Positions 1,130 to 15,451 of a stretch of DNA of 31,118 nt are shown one piece after another (position 1 is the stretch's first letter; each line of letters opens with the position of its first letter). This DNA is from an uncultured Acidobacteriota bacterium (GTDB taxonomy: Bacteria > Acidobacteriota > UBA6911 > RPQK01 > JAPXNP01). Position numbers and translations under genes: made by a program. The stretch spans positions 1 through 31,118 of the forward strand of contig CAZOGT010000002.1 in NCBI GenBank assembly GCA_964579015.1. The letters run 5' to 3'. The notes below the pieces were generated by a model. That model searched no databases, had not been told where the DNA came from, and saw only the letters and a list, made by a program, of their open reading frames with translations.

Positions 1130-1306
1130 AATTATCACCTTTCAGCAGCCTGCGGATACGCAGGGAGAGGCGTCCATTCAGGAGGAAAAAATCAATATTC
1201 AGTGGTCCTCCACACCAAATTTTTATTTTAGACTAGGCAGTTGAGGATTACCATAAAAATCGGATATTTCCCGCCGCGCCTTCCCGGCCTTTTCGTCCGG
1301 AAGCTG

Positions 1307-1416
1307 CGTCCGTGGTGACCGTCCGTGGTGACTGTCCCCTGTAGCTGCCCTGCAGCTGCAATGGTGACTGTCCCCTGTAGATTTGCTGCAGCTGCAATGG
1401 TGACTGTCCCCTGTAG
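1307..1416. repeat. Intergenic tandem array: 3 x 19-bp core TGGTGACTGTCCCCTGTAG at 36-bp period, preceded by a 13-bp direct repeat
   Basis: Cores at 1326-1344, 1362-1380 and 1398-1416. The 17-bp linkers share CTGCAGCTGCAA. CGTCCGTGGTGAC occurs twice (1307-1319, 1320-1332). Confidence 0.95.
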
Positions 1417-1430
1417 ATTTGGCTGGTTGT

Positions 1431-1470
1431 TGTCCCTTTGGTCCCTTCAGTCCCTTTGGTCCCTGTCCCT
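1431..1470. repeat. 9-bp-period GTCCC microrepeat tract
   Basis: GTCCC at 1432, 1441, 1450, 1459 and 1465 (tgtcccttt ggtcccttc agtcccttt ggtccct gtccct). Confidence 0.85.
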
Positions 1471-1481
1471 CAAGCTCCAAG

Positions 1482-4492: not shown

Positions 4493-4561
4493 CACAGCAC
4501 AGGATGCTTGTGAGAAATACGACCGACCTGCCACCTTGCCCAGTATCCATAAGCAGGATGC

Positions 4562-6997
4562 TTATTCCACGTCAATCGTCAATCCCTTCAGCCATTCGTC
4601 AGTCACCTTCCTGCCCAGCAGGAAATGCTTCCTGTCCGGGTACCAGATGACCCTGGTGCCGTCTTTTTCAGTCAGGCTGGGGTACATGGCAATGGAAGCT
4701 GTTCCCTTGGGCCCGAACACCACCCCCTCCGTATCGGCAAACATCTTCGGCCGGCTGAACCAGACCGGCTGGTGGGCCCCCGGCCGGAATTCACCGACTG
4801 AGATGAAAGAGGGGTTCCGGAGATGGTTGGACTGGTTCCGGTCCCAGTTACGGCGGAATTGGTTGTACTCTCCCTTGATTCCCGGATTGTTATTAAAGAG
4901 CAGCAGGAACCTCCCGTCTTCCAGGGCATAGATCGGGGCCGGGGCCATCGGGTGTTCCAGCGGAAGGCCGCCATCCCGGTAGCGAAGAGGCTCCGGTTTC
5001 CTCCAGGATTCCCCGTCGTCACCTGAAACAGAGTAGTAGATATAACCGGTCATGGTTCGCATGATGGTGAAGAGACGACCGTCCGGGAGCAGGGCCAGGG
5101 CCGGCTCCTGGGCCACGGAGATTTCGGGATACACCTTATGGGCGACTTCCAGGCCGGACCCGTCTTCGGGAAGCCACGTAAGTTTGAGTTCGGCAGGGTC
5201 CGGCCCTTCCGCTATATTCTCAAAGCGGATGAATGCCGACCTGCTGTCCCGGTCCAGCCAGTTTTTGTTGGGCTGGGGGATTTTAGCGTTGCTGGAGGTT
5301 CTGGTGTAGCCGACGATCCAGCGCCCGCGGCTGTCCCGGACCGGCTTCTGCCACACAATCCAGTTGGGAGGCACTTCCGGATCAGGATGGTCATACCTTT
5401 CATCCCTGGGAAAGGGGATATCTGGGCCTTCAGTCCATTCGAAACCATTGTCATCAGAGTAGAGAACGCCGATGGTTCCGGATCCCTGTCTGATGTCATA
5501 GTTTTCGATTTCCTTGGTGAAAAAGACAAAGATCCGGCCATTGTCGGCGACTACCGGGAATCCCCAGCTGGCCTGTTTCCCTTCCTTTCCGGCCGGGCAC
5601 CCGGCCAGGGTAACCGGGTCGCTCCAGCGCTCCTGGTCATAACTGCGCGCCAGGACCAGGCGGTTGTCGCCGTGGCCTTCAACACTGCTCTGGGTCCAGA
5701 GCGCCAGCAATTCGTCTGACCCGGGAGCTTCAAACACCAGAAAATGCTCATTGTCTCCGTCATGGTACCCGGTGGGAAGGAAAACGGTTATATCGGGATT
5801 GCTCCTTTTCCATTCTTCGCTCATCAGGGCCGATTCCTCTGCGGGGAGCAGCACCGGCCTCAGGATGTCGAACATGGCCCGGGCCTGGCGCATGAATCCG
5901 AGGTCTGTGGGGTGGGAGGCGTCCACGGTTCCTTCGTTATCGTGTCCGAGAAGCAAATTGCCTTCCAGGTAATAGAGTTCCCGAAAGCCCTGGTCTAGCA
6001 GGGATTGGAAGGCCTTTCGGTACTCGGCCTGGCTCTTGATGTTCCTGGCGCGCTTTTCAGGAAAGAGGTAGGCATTGGAGTATTCACGGTCCTCGACCAT
6101 CAGGATCGGGGTTTCGGGGTGTTTTTCCCTCAGTTTTTTTACGAAGGGTTCAGTACGTTCCCTGACCATTTCCCATTCCATGTTGGGCAGGCAGTCCAGC
6201 ACAAAGACCGCCGGGTCCAACTCCGCTACCAGGTCCGCCATCTCCGGCTCCATTCTTCCATTACCTGAAAATCCGAGGTTGATAAGGGGCATGTTGAACC
6301 AGCGCTGCAGGATGGAGGGGTGGCACATCCCGGGGCGGGAAGCGCTGGCCCCGTGAGTAATGGAGGTCCCGTAAAAAAGTATCGGCTTCTCCCCTTTTTC
6401 TCGCCAGGGGCCGGCTTCCCATAACTCAGCCCCTTCATTGAGGCCCAGTTCGACCCGGCTGACTCCGTTGTAGAGAGGCAGGTAGAGGAGAAAAGTCCTC
6501 CTGGCCGGAGAGAGGCCTTCGGCCAGCGAGGCGGTATTGACCGGGAACTCACCAGGCTTGGTCGCTGCAACCCATCGCCAGCTCTGGTCCTCCATCTGCA
6601 TGTAGAGGTCCAGGCCGCTGACGCTCGCCGGGTTCATGTGGGGCATACCCAGGCTTTCCCTGGTGAGGGTCCAGCGGGCCCTGATATCAGAGGCGTCGGT
6701 TATGAACCTTACGCACATGCCGGCGCTCTGCAGGCTCAGGTTCCAAACCGCTTCCCTGACAATACCCTCAGCCCGGGCAGGAAGGCGGTTGTAGAATTCC
6801 GGAGTATCGTCCCAGCCCCGGCCCTCTACGTTCAGGGACCGTATGTCGTGCCAGAGGACCCTGTCATCGCCGGTTTCCCCTGCAGTCGGGAGGGCCTGCC
6901 GGTTCGAGGATTGAGCTGTTGCGGGCGAAGCTGCCCAAGGCTGTACCATGAGCAGGATCATAACGGGAAGAAAATTTACTGATGAAATTTTACGCAT
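4562..6997 (-). CDS. SGNH/GDSL esterase (with GxDLY N-terminal domain) fused to a C-terminal BNR/Asp-box (sialidase-like) beta-propeller; secreted
   Basis: GGAGG SD at 7008-7012 favours ATG 6997. Signal peptide. SGLDLY; SGNH blocks YGTSIT, GFSGNG, LDCLPN, DASHP. Asp-boxes SYDQERWS, SDDNGFEW, SGDDGESW. Confidence 0.85.
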   Translation of the reverse strand: MRKISSVNFLPVMILLMVQPWAASPATAQSSNRQALPTAGETGDDRVLWHDIRSLNVEGRGWDDTPEFYNRLPARAEGIVREAVWNLSLQSAGMCVRFITDASDIRARWTLTRESLGMPHMNPASVSGLDLYMQMEDQSWRWVAATKPGEFPVNTASLAEGLSPARRTFLLYLPLYNGVSRVELGLNEGAELWEAGPWREKGEKPILFYGTSITHGASASRPGMCHPSILQRWFNMPLINLGFSGNGRMEPEMADLVAELDPAVFVLDCLPNMEWEMVRERTEPFVKKLREKHPETPILMVEDREYSNAYLFPEKRARNIKSQAEYRKAFQSLLDQGFRELYYLEGNLLLGHDNEGTVDASHPTDLGFMRQARAMFDILRPVLLPAEESALMSEEWKRSNPDITVFLPTGYHDGDNEHFLVFEAPGSDELLALWTQSSVEGHGDNRLVLARSYDQERWSDPVTLAGCPAGKEGKQASWGFPVVADNGRIFVFFTKEIENYDIRQGSGTIGVLYSDDNGFEWTEGPDIPFPRDERYDHPDPEVPPNWIVWQKPVRDSRGRWIVGYTRTSSNAKIPQPNKNWLDRDSRSAFIRFENIAEGPDPAELKLTWLPEDGSGLEVAHKVYPEISVAQEPALALLPDGRLFTIMRTMTGYIYYSVSGDDGESWRKPEPLRYRDGGLPLEHPMAPAPIYALEDGRFLLLFNNNPGIKGEYNQFRRNWDRNQSNHLRNPSFISVGEFRPGAHQPVWFSRPKMFADTEGVVFGPKGTASIAMYPSLTEKDGTRVIWYPDRKHFLLGRKVTDEWLKGLTIDVE

Positions 6998-9332: not shown

Positions 9333-9372
9333 GGCCATGCAGTCCATGCAGTCCACCAGGTCCATCACGCCC
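9333..9372. repeat. 9-bp-period GTCCA microrepeat tract between convergent genes
   Basis: ggccatgca gtccatgca gtccaccag gtccatcac gccc; units start at 9333, 9342, 9351, 9360 and 9369. Confidence 0.7.
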
Positions 9373-9418: not shown

Positions 9419-10600
9419 TCAGGCCGGAACAATCTTGTAGGCCCGGTCCCTGCGCCGCAGCTTGACCGGGCTGGCAAAAGTCACGATATTTCCCTGGTGG
9501 CGCTCGATTTGGTCGATGGTGATCCGGACGCTTCCTGTCAGGTTCCCCTGCACGTAGATTTCATCACCCTCGTGGAGTTCTCCGGAATAGAGCTCCATTT
9601 CCGCCACCTGGTTTTTCCGGTAAAAGTTGGTAATCCGCCCCAAGGTTTCCTTGCGCTCGGCGGCCTGGCTGTCTCCGCTGCGGGTCCACCCTTCAGAACC
9701 GGGCCTTCCAAAAAGGAAGCCATCGGAGAATTTTCGGTTATAGACTTTTTTCAAGTCCTCCATGAGTCCAGCACAGAGATCCGGAGAGTAGGTCCCCTCT
9801 TTCAGGGCGTCGAGGGCCGTGCGGTAGGCCCGGGTCACGGTCGCAACATATTCGGGACTGCGGCTGCGCCCTTCGATTTTGAGGTAGTCGATCCCGGTTG
9901 CGGCAATCCGATCAAGGAGATGGATCGTACAGAGGTCCCTGGGGCTGAGCAGGTGCCCTTCATTGACCAGCAGTTCCTTGTCATCTTCCTCGATATCGAT
10001 GATCCGGTAAGAACGGCGGCAGGGCTGGTCGCACTCACCCCTGTTGGCTGAACGGCAGCTCAGGAACTGGCTCAGATAACAGCGGCCTGAAACAGACACA
10101 CACATGGCCCCGTGACCAAATACCTCCACCTTGATCCCGGTGTCGGCCCTGATTTCAGCGATCTGTTCCAGGGTCAGCTCCCGGGCCAGGACAACGCAAT
10201 CAGCTCCCAGTTCCTTGTAGAAGTTCACAGCCTTTGAGTTGGAGATATTCGCCTGGGTAGACACATGGAAGGGAATGCCCTTTTCCCTGCAGAGCTGCAT
10301 TATTGCCAGGTCCTGGCAGATGACTGCGTCAACCTTGGCGTCCCTGCATGCGTCCAGCAGGCCTGAGACCCGGCCCATCTCCTGATCATAAACGATAACG
10401 TTCAGGGCCACAAAAACTTCAATGCCCTTCAACCTGGCCTGCCGTGTGATTTTTTTCAGGTTCTCCGGTTCGATTCCGGCGCTTGATGCCCTCATGTTGA
10501 GCTCTCCGATACCCAGGTAAACGGCATCCGCCCCGTTACGGAGAGCAGCGGCAAAGGAGGCTTCATTTCGCACCGGTGAGAGCAAAGCCGGAATCTTCAT
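9419..10600 (-). CDS. U32-family protein (TrhP/RlhA/PrtC-like, probable Fe-S RNA hydroxylase)
   Basis: GADAVYLG, HVSTQANISN, LARELTLEQI, HGAMCVSVSGRCYLS, ANRGECDQPCR, LSPRDL and LKIEGRSR motifs. Confidence 0.92.
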   Translation of the reverse strand: MKIPALLSPVRNEASFAAALRNGADAVYLGIGELNMRASSAGIEPENLKKITRQARLKGIEVFVALNVIVYDQEMGRVSGLLDACRDAKVDAVICQDLAIMQLCREKGIPFHVSTQANISNSKAVNFYKELGADCVVLARELTLEQIAEIRADTGIKVEVFGHGAMCVSVSGRCYLSQFLSCRSANRGECDQPCRRSYRIIDIEEDDKELLVNEGHLLSPRDLCTIHLLDRIAATGIDYLKIEGRSRSPEYVATVTRAYRTALDALKEGTYSPDLCAGLMEDLKKVYNRKFSDGFLFGRPGSEGWTRSGDSQAAERKETLGRITNFYRKNQVAEMELYSGELHEGDEIYVQGNLTGSVRITIDQIERHQGNIVTFASPVKLRRRDRAYKIVPA

Positions 10601-12614: not shown

Positions 12615-13625
12615 CTACGCGGCGCTGAGCGCGGAAATCACCCGGGCGTGAAGGTGTCCGTTGGTGGCCGCCACTCCCCGGTTTTTTTCCAGAAGCCTGC
12701 CGCAGCTGAAATCCAGGGGATTTCCGGAGATGTCGGTAACCATTCCTCCTGCTTCCTCGACCAGGAGTTTGCCGGCGGCGTGGTCCCAGATTTTTTCTAC
12801 ATAGCCGGGAGAAGAGGAAGAAGGTATGCGCAGGTAAATATCTCCCCTCCCCAGTGCCAGGAGTGCATATTTGACCTGGCTGTCGATCCGCAGCGGCTCT
12901 GGGGTGATCCCGAGGCGATCGGCAACCCGGTCGATATCTGTGACGTTGGTATGCCCGGACTCAAAGGACCTGAGGACCACCGCTTTGGAGGGGTCGCTGT
13001 TACCTGAAACCCTGAGGCGGGTCCATTCCGAATCACCCTCGTTCAGCCAGTAAGCGCCTTCCCCTTTTACAGCCAGATACAGGGTGCCCATTTCAGTTGT
13101 CCCGGCTTCAGCAGGTCCGGCAGGCGTAAGCCTGGGGCAGGCTAGTGCTCCCAGTCTCACCTTTCCCTTGCGCAGGTAGGCCAAGGCCACCGCGTACTGG
13201 TCGCCCCGCAAGAAACCCTTGGTTCCGTCAACAGGGTCCAGGACCCAGCAGTTTTCCTTGGCCCGCCCGGTCCCGTAGTCAAGTAAAGCTCGAAAACTCT
13301 CTTTTCGGAATCCGGGGACAGCATTGGAAACGAATTCAGCAGCGGCTGCCACCAGGTTCCTTCCCGCTTCACCGCAGAGCATTGAGGAAGATTCCTCGGC
13401 AATCAGGGCGGCCCCGGGAATTCTCTCGCTCAGGTGGTATCCCAGGAGGGCCTGGACTGCGATATCAGCCACCGTAACCGGGGACCTGTCACTTTTTTCC
13501 AGGGCTGGATTTACCATTTCATCCTGGATTTTTCTGGCCATGGTCGCGGCCTCACTCAAAAAATTCAGGGCAAATGCTGCTTCAGGAGCCATCTTGTCGA
13601 AACAATTCATAAAACCATTATACAT
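12615..13625 (-). CDS. 3'(2'),5'-bisphosphate nucleotidase (PAP phosphatase), HAL2/SAL1-type, inositol monophosphatase superfamily
   Basis: KSDRSPVTVAD, AEES, WVLDPVDGTKGFLRGDQYAVALA, RIDSQVKY and EKIWDHAAG. The start is uncertain (13625, 13610 or 13592). Confidence 0.9.
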   Translation of the reverse strand: MYNGFMNCFDKMAPEAAFALNFLSEAATMARKIQDEMVNPALEKSDRSPVTVADIAVQALLGYHLSERIPGAALIAEESSSMLCGEAGRNLVAAAAEFVSNAVPGFRKESFRALLDYGTGRAKENCWVLDPVDGTKGFLRGDQYAVALAYLRKGKVRLGALACPRLTPAGPAEAGTTEMGTLYLAVKGEGAYWLNEGDSEWTRLRVSGNSDPSKAVVLRSFESGHTNVTDIDRVADRLGITPEPLRIDSQVKYALLALGRGDIYLRIPSSSSPGYVEKIWDHAAGKLLVEEAGGMVTDISGNPLDFSCGRLLEKNRGVAATNGHLHARVISALSAA

Positions 13626-13647: not shown

Positions 13648-13738
13648 CGGGACCTGGTGACTGTCCCCTGTAGCGGGACCTGGTGACTGTCCCCTGTAGC
13701 GGGACCTGGTGACTGTCCCCTGTAGTGGTCCCCTGTAG
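13648..13738. repeat. Intergenic tandem array: 3 x 26-bp unit CGGGACCTGGTGACTGTCCCCTGTAG plus one deleted copy
   Basis: Units at 13648-13673, 13674-13699 and 13700-13725. TGGTCCCCTGTAG at 13726-13738 is the core missing GACTGT. Same 19-bp core as 1326-1416. Confidence 0.95.
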
Positions 13739-13745
13739 TGTAGAG

Positions 13746-15170
13746 CTAATTCCCTGGCAGGTGTCCGGCAGGCGGCAGCATGTCCTCGACCGGTCCATGG
13801 ACCACCCGGAGTTTCTTCCATTTGCCGGTACGGTACCTGAGGAAAAAGACCAAACTGAAGGTCATGAACACCAGGATCACGCATCCCCAGGCTGTTATCA
13901 CTGAATATCCAAGTACATTCATGACCACCAGGGGAATGGGCAGCAGCATCCAGTGAAGGATGACCGAGGCTCCCATGGTCCAATAGGTATCTCCGGCTCC
14001 CCTCAGGACGCCGATAAAAATGACGATAACGGCCTCAATCATCACGTAGAGGGATGCCATCCTGAGCATGGTGATGGCCAGTGGCTCTGCCTGCGCAAAA
14101 AGCGGGGTATCCTTGACGGGGCTGAATACGTTGACCAGCACTTCGGGCATGAACACAAAGAATACCAGGACTACTGAAGAGTAGATCCACCCGACCTTCA
14201 ATCCGGACATCGCTGACCTTTGGACGATATCAGGCCTTCCTGCTCCCATGTAGCGGCCGGAGATGCTGATCATCCCGATTTCAAGGCCTATCAGGGGAAC
14301 ATAGGAGACCATGTCCCAGTTGAAAACAATGGTGATAGCCGAGGCCACCACCAGCCCATGGGAGTAGAAGGCCATGATCAGCCCGGTAAAGGCGATGAAA
14401 TTGAGAAACATTTCCACTCCCATGGGGCTTCCGAAGCGCAGCAGCTTTCCCATGGTTTCGGACTCAAAACTGCAGCAGCCAAAAACACCGAATTCACGAC
14501 GGTTCGCCCTGGAAAAATAAGCGGCAGACAGGATCACAAGTCCGCAGAGGCTTCCGAGGATCGTCCCGTAGCCGGCACCCCGGATGCCGTAGGCTGGAAA
14601 CCCGAGTTTCCCGAAGATCAATACGTAATTGCTGATAACGTTGACTGCCATGGCCGCCAAAGCCGAAATCATGATTACCCGGGTCCTGCCTATACCGGAG
14701 AAGAAGCAGCTGAGAACATGGCGGAAAAGACCTATCAGGCCCGCATAGATGACCAGGTTGAAATAGATCTTCTGCAGGGCCAGTTGTTCCGGGTCAATGC
14801 CGAAGAAATCCATCAGGTAGCTGGCCAGGGGAAGCAGCAGTATTACCAGGGCGCCGGAGACCAGAGCGATGCCGAAAGCCTGCACTACTACCACGCTGCA
14901 GCGGCTCTTCCTTCCTGCCCCCAGGTACTGGGCTACCAGGGCCGTGGAAAAGCCGATCAGGCCCATGAAAAATGAAGTCAGCGTGAAACTGGCCAGCCAT
15001 CCTCCCATGGAGGCGCTCATATGTTCCGGACCGAGCCGCGAGAGAAAGAGGCGGTCAGTAAAGGTCATGAAAGTTTCACAGGCGCTGGAAACCACCATGG
15101 GAAAGGCAATGTAAAGAAGCTCGCCGACACTTCCCGGCCCACCCTTCAATCTGCTGAAACCTTTGAACAT
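13746..15170 (-). CDS. MATE family efflux transporter (NorM/DinF-like)
   Basis: IAFPMVVS..TDRLFLSRLG, AQYLGAG, GIRGAGYGT, GVLRGAGDT; about 12 TM segments. GGAAGG SD supports ATG 15170, although the frame stays open to 15365. Confidence 0.92.
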   Translation of the reverse strand: MFKGFSRLKGGPGSVGELLYIAFPMVVSSACETFMTFTDRLFLSRLGPEHMSASMGGWLASFTLTSFFMGLIGFSTALVAQYLGAGRKSRCSVVVVQAFGIALVSGALVILLLPLASYLMDFFGIDPEQLALQKIYFNLVIYAGLIGLFRHVLSCFFSGIGRTRVIMISALAAMAVNVISNYVLIFGKLGFPAYGIRGAGYGTILGSLCGLVILSAAYFSRANRREFGVFGCCSFESETMGKLLRFGSPMGVEMFLNFIAFTGLIMAFYSHGLVVASAITIVFNWDMVSYVPLIGLEIGMISISGRYMGAGRPDIVQRSAMSGLKVGWIYSSVVLVFFVFMPEVLVNVFSPVKDTPLFAQAEPLAITMLRMASLYVMIEAVIVIFIGVLRGAGDTYWTMGASVILHWMLLPIPLVVMNVLGYSVITAWGCVILVFMTFSLVFFLRYRTGKWKKLRVVHGPVEDMLPPAGHLPGN

Positions 15171-15451
15171 AGGTCCTTCCACGAACAATAATGGATCTAT
15201 TCCTGGCTCAATTTCCTGTTTTCTCAGGATGATGACTTTTACGGCTCCTGCTTCGTCTCCTCCGCAAGTGTCCCCGCAAGAAAAGCAAAAGTGGAAAACC
15301 AGGCCATTCCGGCTTACCCGGTGGCGGTTTGGATTTGATTTACAGCAAAACTGCCGGATCATCACCTGAACGGATCAGGCAATCTACAATATATCAGATA
15401 AACCTGGAAACTTCCCGTTGTGGATGTATTGCAGGCGGCAGCCGGAATCCC

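Follow-up and report, generated by a model that had tools for sequence, protein, structure and literature searches.

RAYT-like genes flanked by inverted repeats that share the sequence GGGGWSAS were described by Di Nocera, De Gregorio, and Rocco (2013, PMC3733652), who named the enzymes TIRYT and the elements TIRtrons. The TIR families were moderately abundant and "organized as REPs in dimers or clusters," and head-to-tail REP dimers, together with REP clusters reiterated in tandem with flanking DNA, were described in the same work. Most TIRYTs belong to TnpA-Y1 subclass 2.1 (Bertels group 1), in which subclass 2.3 is embedded, and both subclasses are recorded as "REP: no" (Quentin et al., 2018, PMC6006769). 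RAYT group 1, the most widely distributed group, is IS-like and has only a weak association with repeated 16-mers (Bertels et al., 2017, PMC5581495). Our literature search found no biochemistry of any TIRYT.

The DNA analyzed here, a stretch of 31,118 nt that we call the window, is an entire contig (C2) of a 3.27-Mb genome in 507 contigs with 53.7% G+C. It holds two tandem arrays of a 19-mer, which is very probably this genome's version of the TIRYT-type Y1 end repeat (TnpA-Y1 subclass 2.1/2.3, Bertels group 1 RAYT). Because a family of near-palindromic repeats bracketing IS200-like genes had already been described, the element is a new example of a described, little-studied selfish DNA and not a new class. 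An earlier note on this DNA had proposed a candidate novel family of REP-like repeats; that proposal gives way to the match with the TIRYT/TIRtron repeats, GGGGWSAS (PMC3733652), and with the enzymes of subclass 2.1/2.3 (PMC6006769). The head-to-tail arrangement, which the note had regarded as a departure from REPs, has its precedent in the dimers of PMC3733652.

Two tandem arrays and their edges

Six exact copies of the 19-mer were found in the window, all on the plus strand (1326-1344, 1362-1380, 1398-1416, 13655-13673, 13681-13699, and 13707-13725). This agrees with the three copies in the same orientation that had been reported at each of two loci. The window holds no extra copies, even at three or fewer mismatches, and the chance expectation was 0 in 100 dinucleotide-preserving shuffles of the window. 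The arrays and the repeats at their edges are as follows.

1307-1332, plus strand: left partial unit of array 1, two copies of CGTCCGTGGTGAC, 13 bp made of the 5' flank and the first 7 nt of the 19-mer
1326-1416, plus strand: array 1, three exact 19-mers with a 36-bp period and 17-bp linkers containing TGCAGCTGCA
1432-1464, plus strand: 9-bp GTCCC-based repeat GTCCCTTTG, 3.7 copies by Tandem Repeats Finder (TRF)
13648-13725, plus strand: array 2, three perfect 26-bp units, each CGGGACC followed by the 19-mer
13726-13743, plus strand: right partial duplicates of array 2, TG, the last 11 nt of the 19-mer again, and then TGTAG

TRF returned array 1 at 1326-1421 (period 36, 2.7 copies) and array 2 at 13648-13725 (period 26, 3.0 copies, 100% identity). 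The sequence of both arrays confirms the two linkers that had been reported, one of 17 bp with a palindrome and the other CGGGACC, and the linker of array 2 is the same sequence that lies immediately upstream of its copy 1. The partial copies at the array edges (1307-1332 and 13726-13743) and the repeat at 1432-1464 are additions to the earlier description. On the left of array 1, the second partial copy continues into full copy 1 (TRF period 13, 2.4 copies, 1307-1337). On the right of array 2, GTCCCCTGTAGTG occurs twice and is followed by TAG at 13715-13743 (TRF period 13 at 13715-13740), and the partial duplicate keeps a core suffix of 6 nt. The GTCCCTTTG repeat looks like a degenerate, re-copied 3' half of the core plus flank, and its pattern resembles the GTCCCC-plus-flank duplicates tallied in other arrays.

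Both arrays are intergenic, as had been claimed, each in a spacer between minus-strand genes. Array 1 lies between the genes at 2-1138 (LRR protein) and 1482-2237 (ABC ATPase), and array 2 between those at 12615-13625 (inositol-monophosphatase family) and 13746-15365 (MatE); the functions of the genes around both arrays are unrelated. Rfam gave no match at the gathering threshold over the whole window, and promoter and terminator consensus scans at both arrays found none. In two congeners with flanking genes 70 to 80% identical, the orthologous spacers are free of the element at both loci. The earlier note had suggested a search for such empty sites, and we conclude that both arrays were gained in the lineage of the window.

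In Logan contigs from four sediment runs the flanks are covered and the contigs end at the arrays, and the copy numbers given for the window are the assembly's own. The unique flanks of both arrays were recovered at 99% identity in independent runs. One contig of lower identity (X4, depth 3.4) has small indels within array 2, a signal too weak for a polymorphism call. DNA nearly identical to the genome of the window is present in sediment metagenomes. Elsewhere in the window, a 9-bp repeat, CCATGCAGT, lies at 9335-9355 with 2.3 copies and has one unit more in a contig of run X3, a possible population length polymorphism.

The unit and its family in the genome

The 19-mer contains a 13-nt core, GGTGACTGTCCCC, which in the whole genome has 30 exact copies and 73 copies at one mismatch or fewer, at 48 loci on 44 contigs. 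Ten permuted motifs gave 0 to 1 exact copies in the same genome. Exact cores lie outside ORFs of at least 150 aa in 25 of the 30 cases, and such ORFs cover 85% of the bases; many core copies lie at contig ends. These counts bear out the dispersed intergenic family that had been proposed. The earlier note had also named what would speak against it, only two loci and no HUH enzyme; we found 48 loci here and brackets around Y1 genes in many genomes. Several sister types, the core among them, have in common CTGTCCCC with (T/A)GTAG after it. Counted by the 5-mer before CTGTCCCC, these are GGTGA (30), GTCCT (24), GGAGA (12), GAACA (8), and CACCT (6), and CTGTCCCC is followed by TGTAG 25 times and by AGTAG 13 times.

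The constant center of the unit is GGTGAC-T-GTCCCC, in which T versus C is the sole asymmetry. Comparison of the two ends in 11 bracketed elements whose flanks were long enough showed agreement over just 4 to 5 nt past the GGGG tip, which makes the unit one of about 5+13+5 bp, very nearly a palindrome. It is thus a near-palindrome of about 23 bp, with a 13-nt center and outer arms of 4 to 5 bp that vary between genomes; the 3' arm in the genome of the window is (T/A)GTAG. The reverse complement of the core starts with GGGGACAG and fits the outer-tip consensus GGGGWSAS. The imperfect palindrome that had been noted stands as a near-palindromic sequence, but as a hairpin the window copies are weak, with folding energies of -3.2 to -3.8 kcal/mol (z, -0.95 to -1.9). 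Over all copies, flank complementarity is modest (36 to 46% paired versus 27 to 34% expected), and we therefore speak of a near-palindrome and not of a proven hairpin. Flank pairing only modestly above expectation also led us to reject a covarying stem that closes a conserved 9-nt loop. Outside the genome of the window, the two arms flanking the core are often complementary to each other.

Two further kinds of repeat were observed in this genome. A composite unit, in which the GTGG hairpin repeat described below is fused via an 8- to 11-nt linker to a TTATAG-tailed core variant, was found at these sites.

C3:10734-10790
C113:8406-8540
C123:222-512
contig ends of C4, C142, C279, C420, and C465

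It sits within a longer repeat with GACCCCGA-type tracts (two copies lie 272 bp apart on C123) and frequently breaks contigs. The other is a third palindromic family, GTAGCTGGAGC...GCTCCAGCTAC, headed by a true GTAG; it occurs at C103:850-880 and in a congener (G002), where it lies in the spacer orthologous to window 1139-1481 (L194).

Y1 genes bracketed by the unit

A count of the exact core in 30 relatives gave low numbers within the genus and family (0 to 4 copies) and high ones in two same-order genomes of other families, G017 (18 copies) and G024 (11 copies); a control pattern gave 0 to 1. A scan of one genome per species for core-N4-34-core returned at least 116 loci (856 kb) in at least 13 phyla. 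The phyla among the matches listed include Planctomycetota, Pseudomonadota, Acidobacteriota, Myxococcota, Bdellovibrionota, Actinomycetota (with a cultured Streptomyces), Patescibacteria, Spirochaetota, Armatimonadota, Verrucomicrobiota, Hydrogenedentota, Thermodesulfobacteriota, and others. The 13 bases are identical in all these genomes and the neighboring bases depend on the genome, with tails after the core such as TATTT, TTTTC, and GATTT. GTAG after the core is confined to the genome of the window, so that the variable tail does not serve as the defining tag for which it had been taken.

Elsewhere, arrays commonly begin with one inverted copy and continue with at least two direct ones, and partial copies at the array edges recur, including the left-hand partial duplication. 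A single array reaches 19 copies, in a Planctomycetaceae MAG (L087). Arrays with partial copies lie inside closed or long-read chromosomes (G017, G024, and OY764083.1) and in the assembly of the cultured Streptomyces. Single cores at one mismatch or fewer also occur in G017, a closed genome of the same order, in separate stretches with one orientation within each region: 11 over about 24 kb at C1:4043794-4066975 (L010 and L011) and 8 over about 10 kb at 4780618-4789566 (L012). A full-text literature search for the 13-mer or a 12-mer on either strand gave mammalian primer matches only, and the motif is absent from the supplementary files of PMC3733652.

A Y1 ORF was found in about 19 of the at least 116 loci, which had been fetched by the DNA pattern alone. 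In at least 11 of these about 19 loci the gene is bracketed directly, with minus copies on the left and plus copies on the right, on either gene strand, and the GGGG tips of the inverted copies point outward. A protein search added two more core-bracketed Y1 genes, one from a planctomycete and one from a gammaproteobacterium, and at least 13 genes in other genomes are bracketed by the exact core. The tie to HUH tyrosine (Y1) transposases that had been drawn from the letters of the window is thus supported by genes bracketed with the same core in many genomes.

The bracketed proteins carry the signatures of subclass 2.1/2.3, namely, the HUH motif NH[VYF]H, Y[VI]ELNP, and a WSSA tail, and 16 of them are 20 to 66% identical to one another (median, 41%). 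Two forms were distinguished, a short form of about 230 aa and a 2.3-like form of about 325 aa with an insertion of about 45 to 55 aa and a C-terminal extension; the motif table of PMC6006769 (Table 1) fits both. The best NCBIfam match is NF047646, REP-associated tyrosine transposase, below its equivalog cutoff, and the Pfam Y1_Tnp match is weak (22 to 37 bits).

In relatives, the long form is multicopy (up to 10), regularly with GGGGACAG-type sites upstream and, for many copies, with CTGTCCCC arrays downstream. In G017 such upstream sites are present in 7/7 gene copies and such downstream arrays in 4/7, and in G024 both copies of a 311-aa Y1 gene adjoin arrays of the exact core. Core and gene copy numbers are unmatched across relatives: G015 has 10 genes and 0 exact cores, and G022 has 4 cores and no gene. 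In G015, of the same family, at least five long Y1 copies have one in-frame TAA each, with matching alignment spans (e.g., C5:1515766-1516650, C8:325661-326545, and C5:1339973-1340857); the explanation is either amplification of a broken copy or readthrough of the stop.

From the protein side, 80 metagenome loci were fetched by an alignment of the short form. Of 73 assessable genes, 66 are bracketed by inverted repeats of at least 12 nt, mostly 45 to 130 nt upstream and mostly made of GGGGACA(C/G) plus a variable 5 to 6 nt. The exact 13-mer was present in 5/80 of these loci and the rest have other inner 5- to 6-mers, and the 13-mer as a universal constraint of the enzyme family was accordingly rejected. 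In a tree of 92 proteins, members of the TCACC type group together (8 changes versus 14.9 in shuffles; 0/500 shuffles as low); they do not form a single clade, and the type is present on the deepest branches. From this distribution and the 5/80 count, it follows that the 13-mer is one sequence type of the family's end, possibly ancestral.

The genome of the window has three subclass-2.3-like homologues of the G024 gene, with the HUH and Y motifs intact in both full-length genes.

C23:11559-12530, full-length gene: ACCT-type core copies on both sides
C219:1814-2785, full-length gene: GAACA-type copies at 1460 (minus strand) and 4799 (plus strand)
C238:7-303, gene fragment: three GTCCT-type copies, downstream only

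The flanking copies are sister variants of the form N5-CTGTCCCC, and of the three genes only those on C23 and C219 are bracketed. No gene on the assembled contigs of this genome has the GGTGA variant on both sides, and the subclass-2.1-type form of about 230 aa, around which the GGTGA type is found in other phyla, is missing from this genome; for these reasons we only infer the cognate enzyme of the window copies.

Pfam Y1_Tnp finds three genes in this genome (on C74, C482, and C343), which are RAYT-like and of another subgroup; no core copies lie near them. Another hairpin repeat, of the GTGGCATGAGC type, brackets the C74 gene. This second and more abundant family consists of GTGG followed by a hairpin with an 8-bp stem, CATAAGCT-TCC-AGCTTATG, and its variants, with 121 matches at four or fewer mismatches genome-wide, among them 4548-4568 (minus strand) in the window. 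At C74 it occurs at 9451-9503 and 10232-10359, around the RAYT-like gene at 9502-10140 (minus strand), and because the hairpin brackets the gene, the two look like a classical REP/RAYT pair. The family has the same kind of partial tandem duplications and is often flanked by the short repeats ATTGACG and GCCATTC.

Comparison with known systems and alternative explanations

The likeness to the TIRtron/TIRYT system lies in inverted repeats with an outer GGGGWSAS tip that bracket a RAYT-like Y1 gene, in loose copies that occur as singles, dimers, and clusters in moderately abundant families, and in the protein motifs NH(V/Y/F)H, Y(V/I)ELNP, and the WSSA tail. In contrast with the 8-nt consensus that is all the papers give, the unit here is a 23-bp near-palindrome with a 13-nt center identical in at least 13 phyla; it reaches 73 copies in the genome of the window, and its arrays are mostly head to tail with partial edge copies.

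With REP/BIME and REPIN elements and their RAYT (TnpA-REP; Escherichia coli and Pseudomonas), the family shares short extragenic palindromic units that flank a single-strand Y1/HUH gene, tandem clustering together with flanking DNA and, by analogy, a putative spread in trans. It differs in having no conserved 5' GTAG guide and a much weaker hairpin; its enzyme is of another subclass, multicopy and IS-like in relatives (up to 10), and its unit is common to several phyla, whereas REPs are species specific. With IS200/IS605 (TnpA-Y1 class 1), it shares the Y1 HUH catalytic core, imperfect palindromes near both ends, and an asymmetry in the palindromes that could mark the active strand. Here, however, the ends are true inverted copies of one unit and not distinct subterminal LE/RE hairpins around tnpA in multiple identical copies, tnpB is lacking, and units far outnumber genes. 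Tn7/Mu-type multisite transposon ends, integron attC sites, Tn3-type terminal repeats, and sequencing adaptors were set aside, since the arrays run in one orientation, the family occupies 48 loci, and its units bracket Y1 genes.

Each linker is local flank copied again, and this shows that the arrays grow as the unit is duplicated in tandem along with the local DNA next to it. On the right, breakpoints lie at the CCCC tip or inside it; on the left, they follow GGTGAC. Right-hand partial copies keep 0 to 7 nt of the core, with a peak at 2 to 4 (about 150 partial versus 71 full), a range that led us to reject breakpoints exactly at the center of the palindrome. Left-hand partial copies are fewer (about 54 partial versus 67 full). 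The edge duplications may arise by enzyme nicking or by replication slippage.

The recopied linkers and partial edge copies are also what plain minisatellites would show, had they arisen by replication slippage with no enzyme at any stage. The presence of one 13-mer at 48 loci, in at least 13 phyla, and as inverted pairs around a single gene family is beyond what slippage can produce, which makes this explanation extremely unlikely. The earlier statement that the repeats are not simple slippage thus holds for their dispersal but not for the growth of the arrays. The 507 contigs, the many copies at contig ends, and the Logan contigs of four sediment runs that stop at the arrays, with no bridging, might suggest assembly artifacts of a fragmented metagenome bin. 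The chance of this is slighter still, given the same arrays, partial copies included, in the closed or long-read genomes and the cultured Streptomyces and the recovery of the unique flanks at 99% identity.

Two other readings accept the arrays and change their agent. In line with the earlier note, the units could be REPs of the classical GTAG-tagged kind with a canonical RAYT (group 2/3/4 type) as their enzyme, and the TGTAG and AGTAG that follow CTGTCCCC and the other-subgroup RAYT-like genes on C74, C482, and C343 are what such a reading would expect. Nevertheless, it is very unlikely: a classical REP is a stable GC-rich stem-loop with a conserved GTAG at its foot and flanks a group 2/3 RAYT gene, whereas the window units fold at only about -3 kcal/mol, copies in other genomes have variable tails without GTAG, and the C74 gene is bracketed by the GTGGCATGAGC-type hairpin with no core near any of the three. 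Operator- or iteron-like sites that bind a host regulator or nucleoid protein and are retained to control genes, with no propagation by a transposase, would fit a double-strand near-palindrome in tandem, an array (array 2) that ends 30 nt from the start codon at 13625, and the G017 single copies in many consecutive spacers in one orientation. This reading is improbable, if somewhat less so than that of classical REPs, since the flanking genes are functionally unrelated, the corresponding spacers of congeners are without sites, copy number varies and copies interrupt contigs, the arrays show no promoter or terminator consensus, and the Y1 gene is the only recurrent neighbor across phyla.

For the TIRYT-type end repeat, we propose a mechanism modeled on IS200/IS605 and the TnpA-REP of E. 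coli. Full elements consist of inverted units, GGGG tips outward, that bracket the transposase gene, and loose units are spread in intergenic DNA. The enzyme would bind the unit on one single strand, nick beside it, and rejoin, moving or copying units in trans; the strand choice and cleavage site of this putative TIRYT action are likewise drawn by analogy. More speculatively, and less likely than not, group-1 RAYT/TIRYT enzymes may sustain REPIN-like populations in most bacterial phyla; the 13-nt TCACC-type unit would then be an ancestral recognition site that stayed the same as the proteins diverged to about 25 to 40% identity, and the edge-anchored partial duplications may be the footprint of nicking and rejoining at the GGGG tip and not of slippage.

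The family accounts for the poor assembly of this genome and for the content of many of its spacers, and it connects a seemingly orphan repeat with a named family of enzymes. No repeat population has so far been ascribed to the largest and most widespread RAYT group; most of its genes examined here are bracketed by short GGGGACA(S)-tipped units, and one unit type is unchanged from Planctomycetota to Actinomycetota and Saccharibacteria. The unit provides a defined 23-nt substrate for a first biochemical test of TIRYT and a simple sequence marker for locating such elements in metagenomes.
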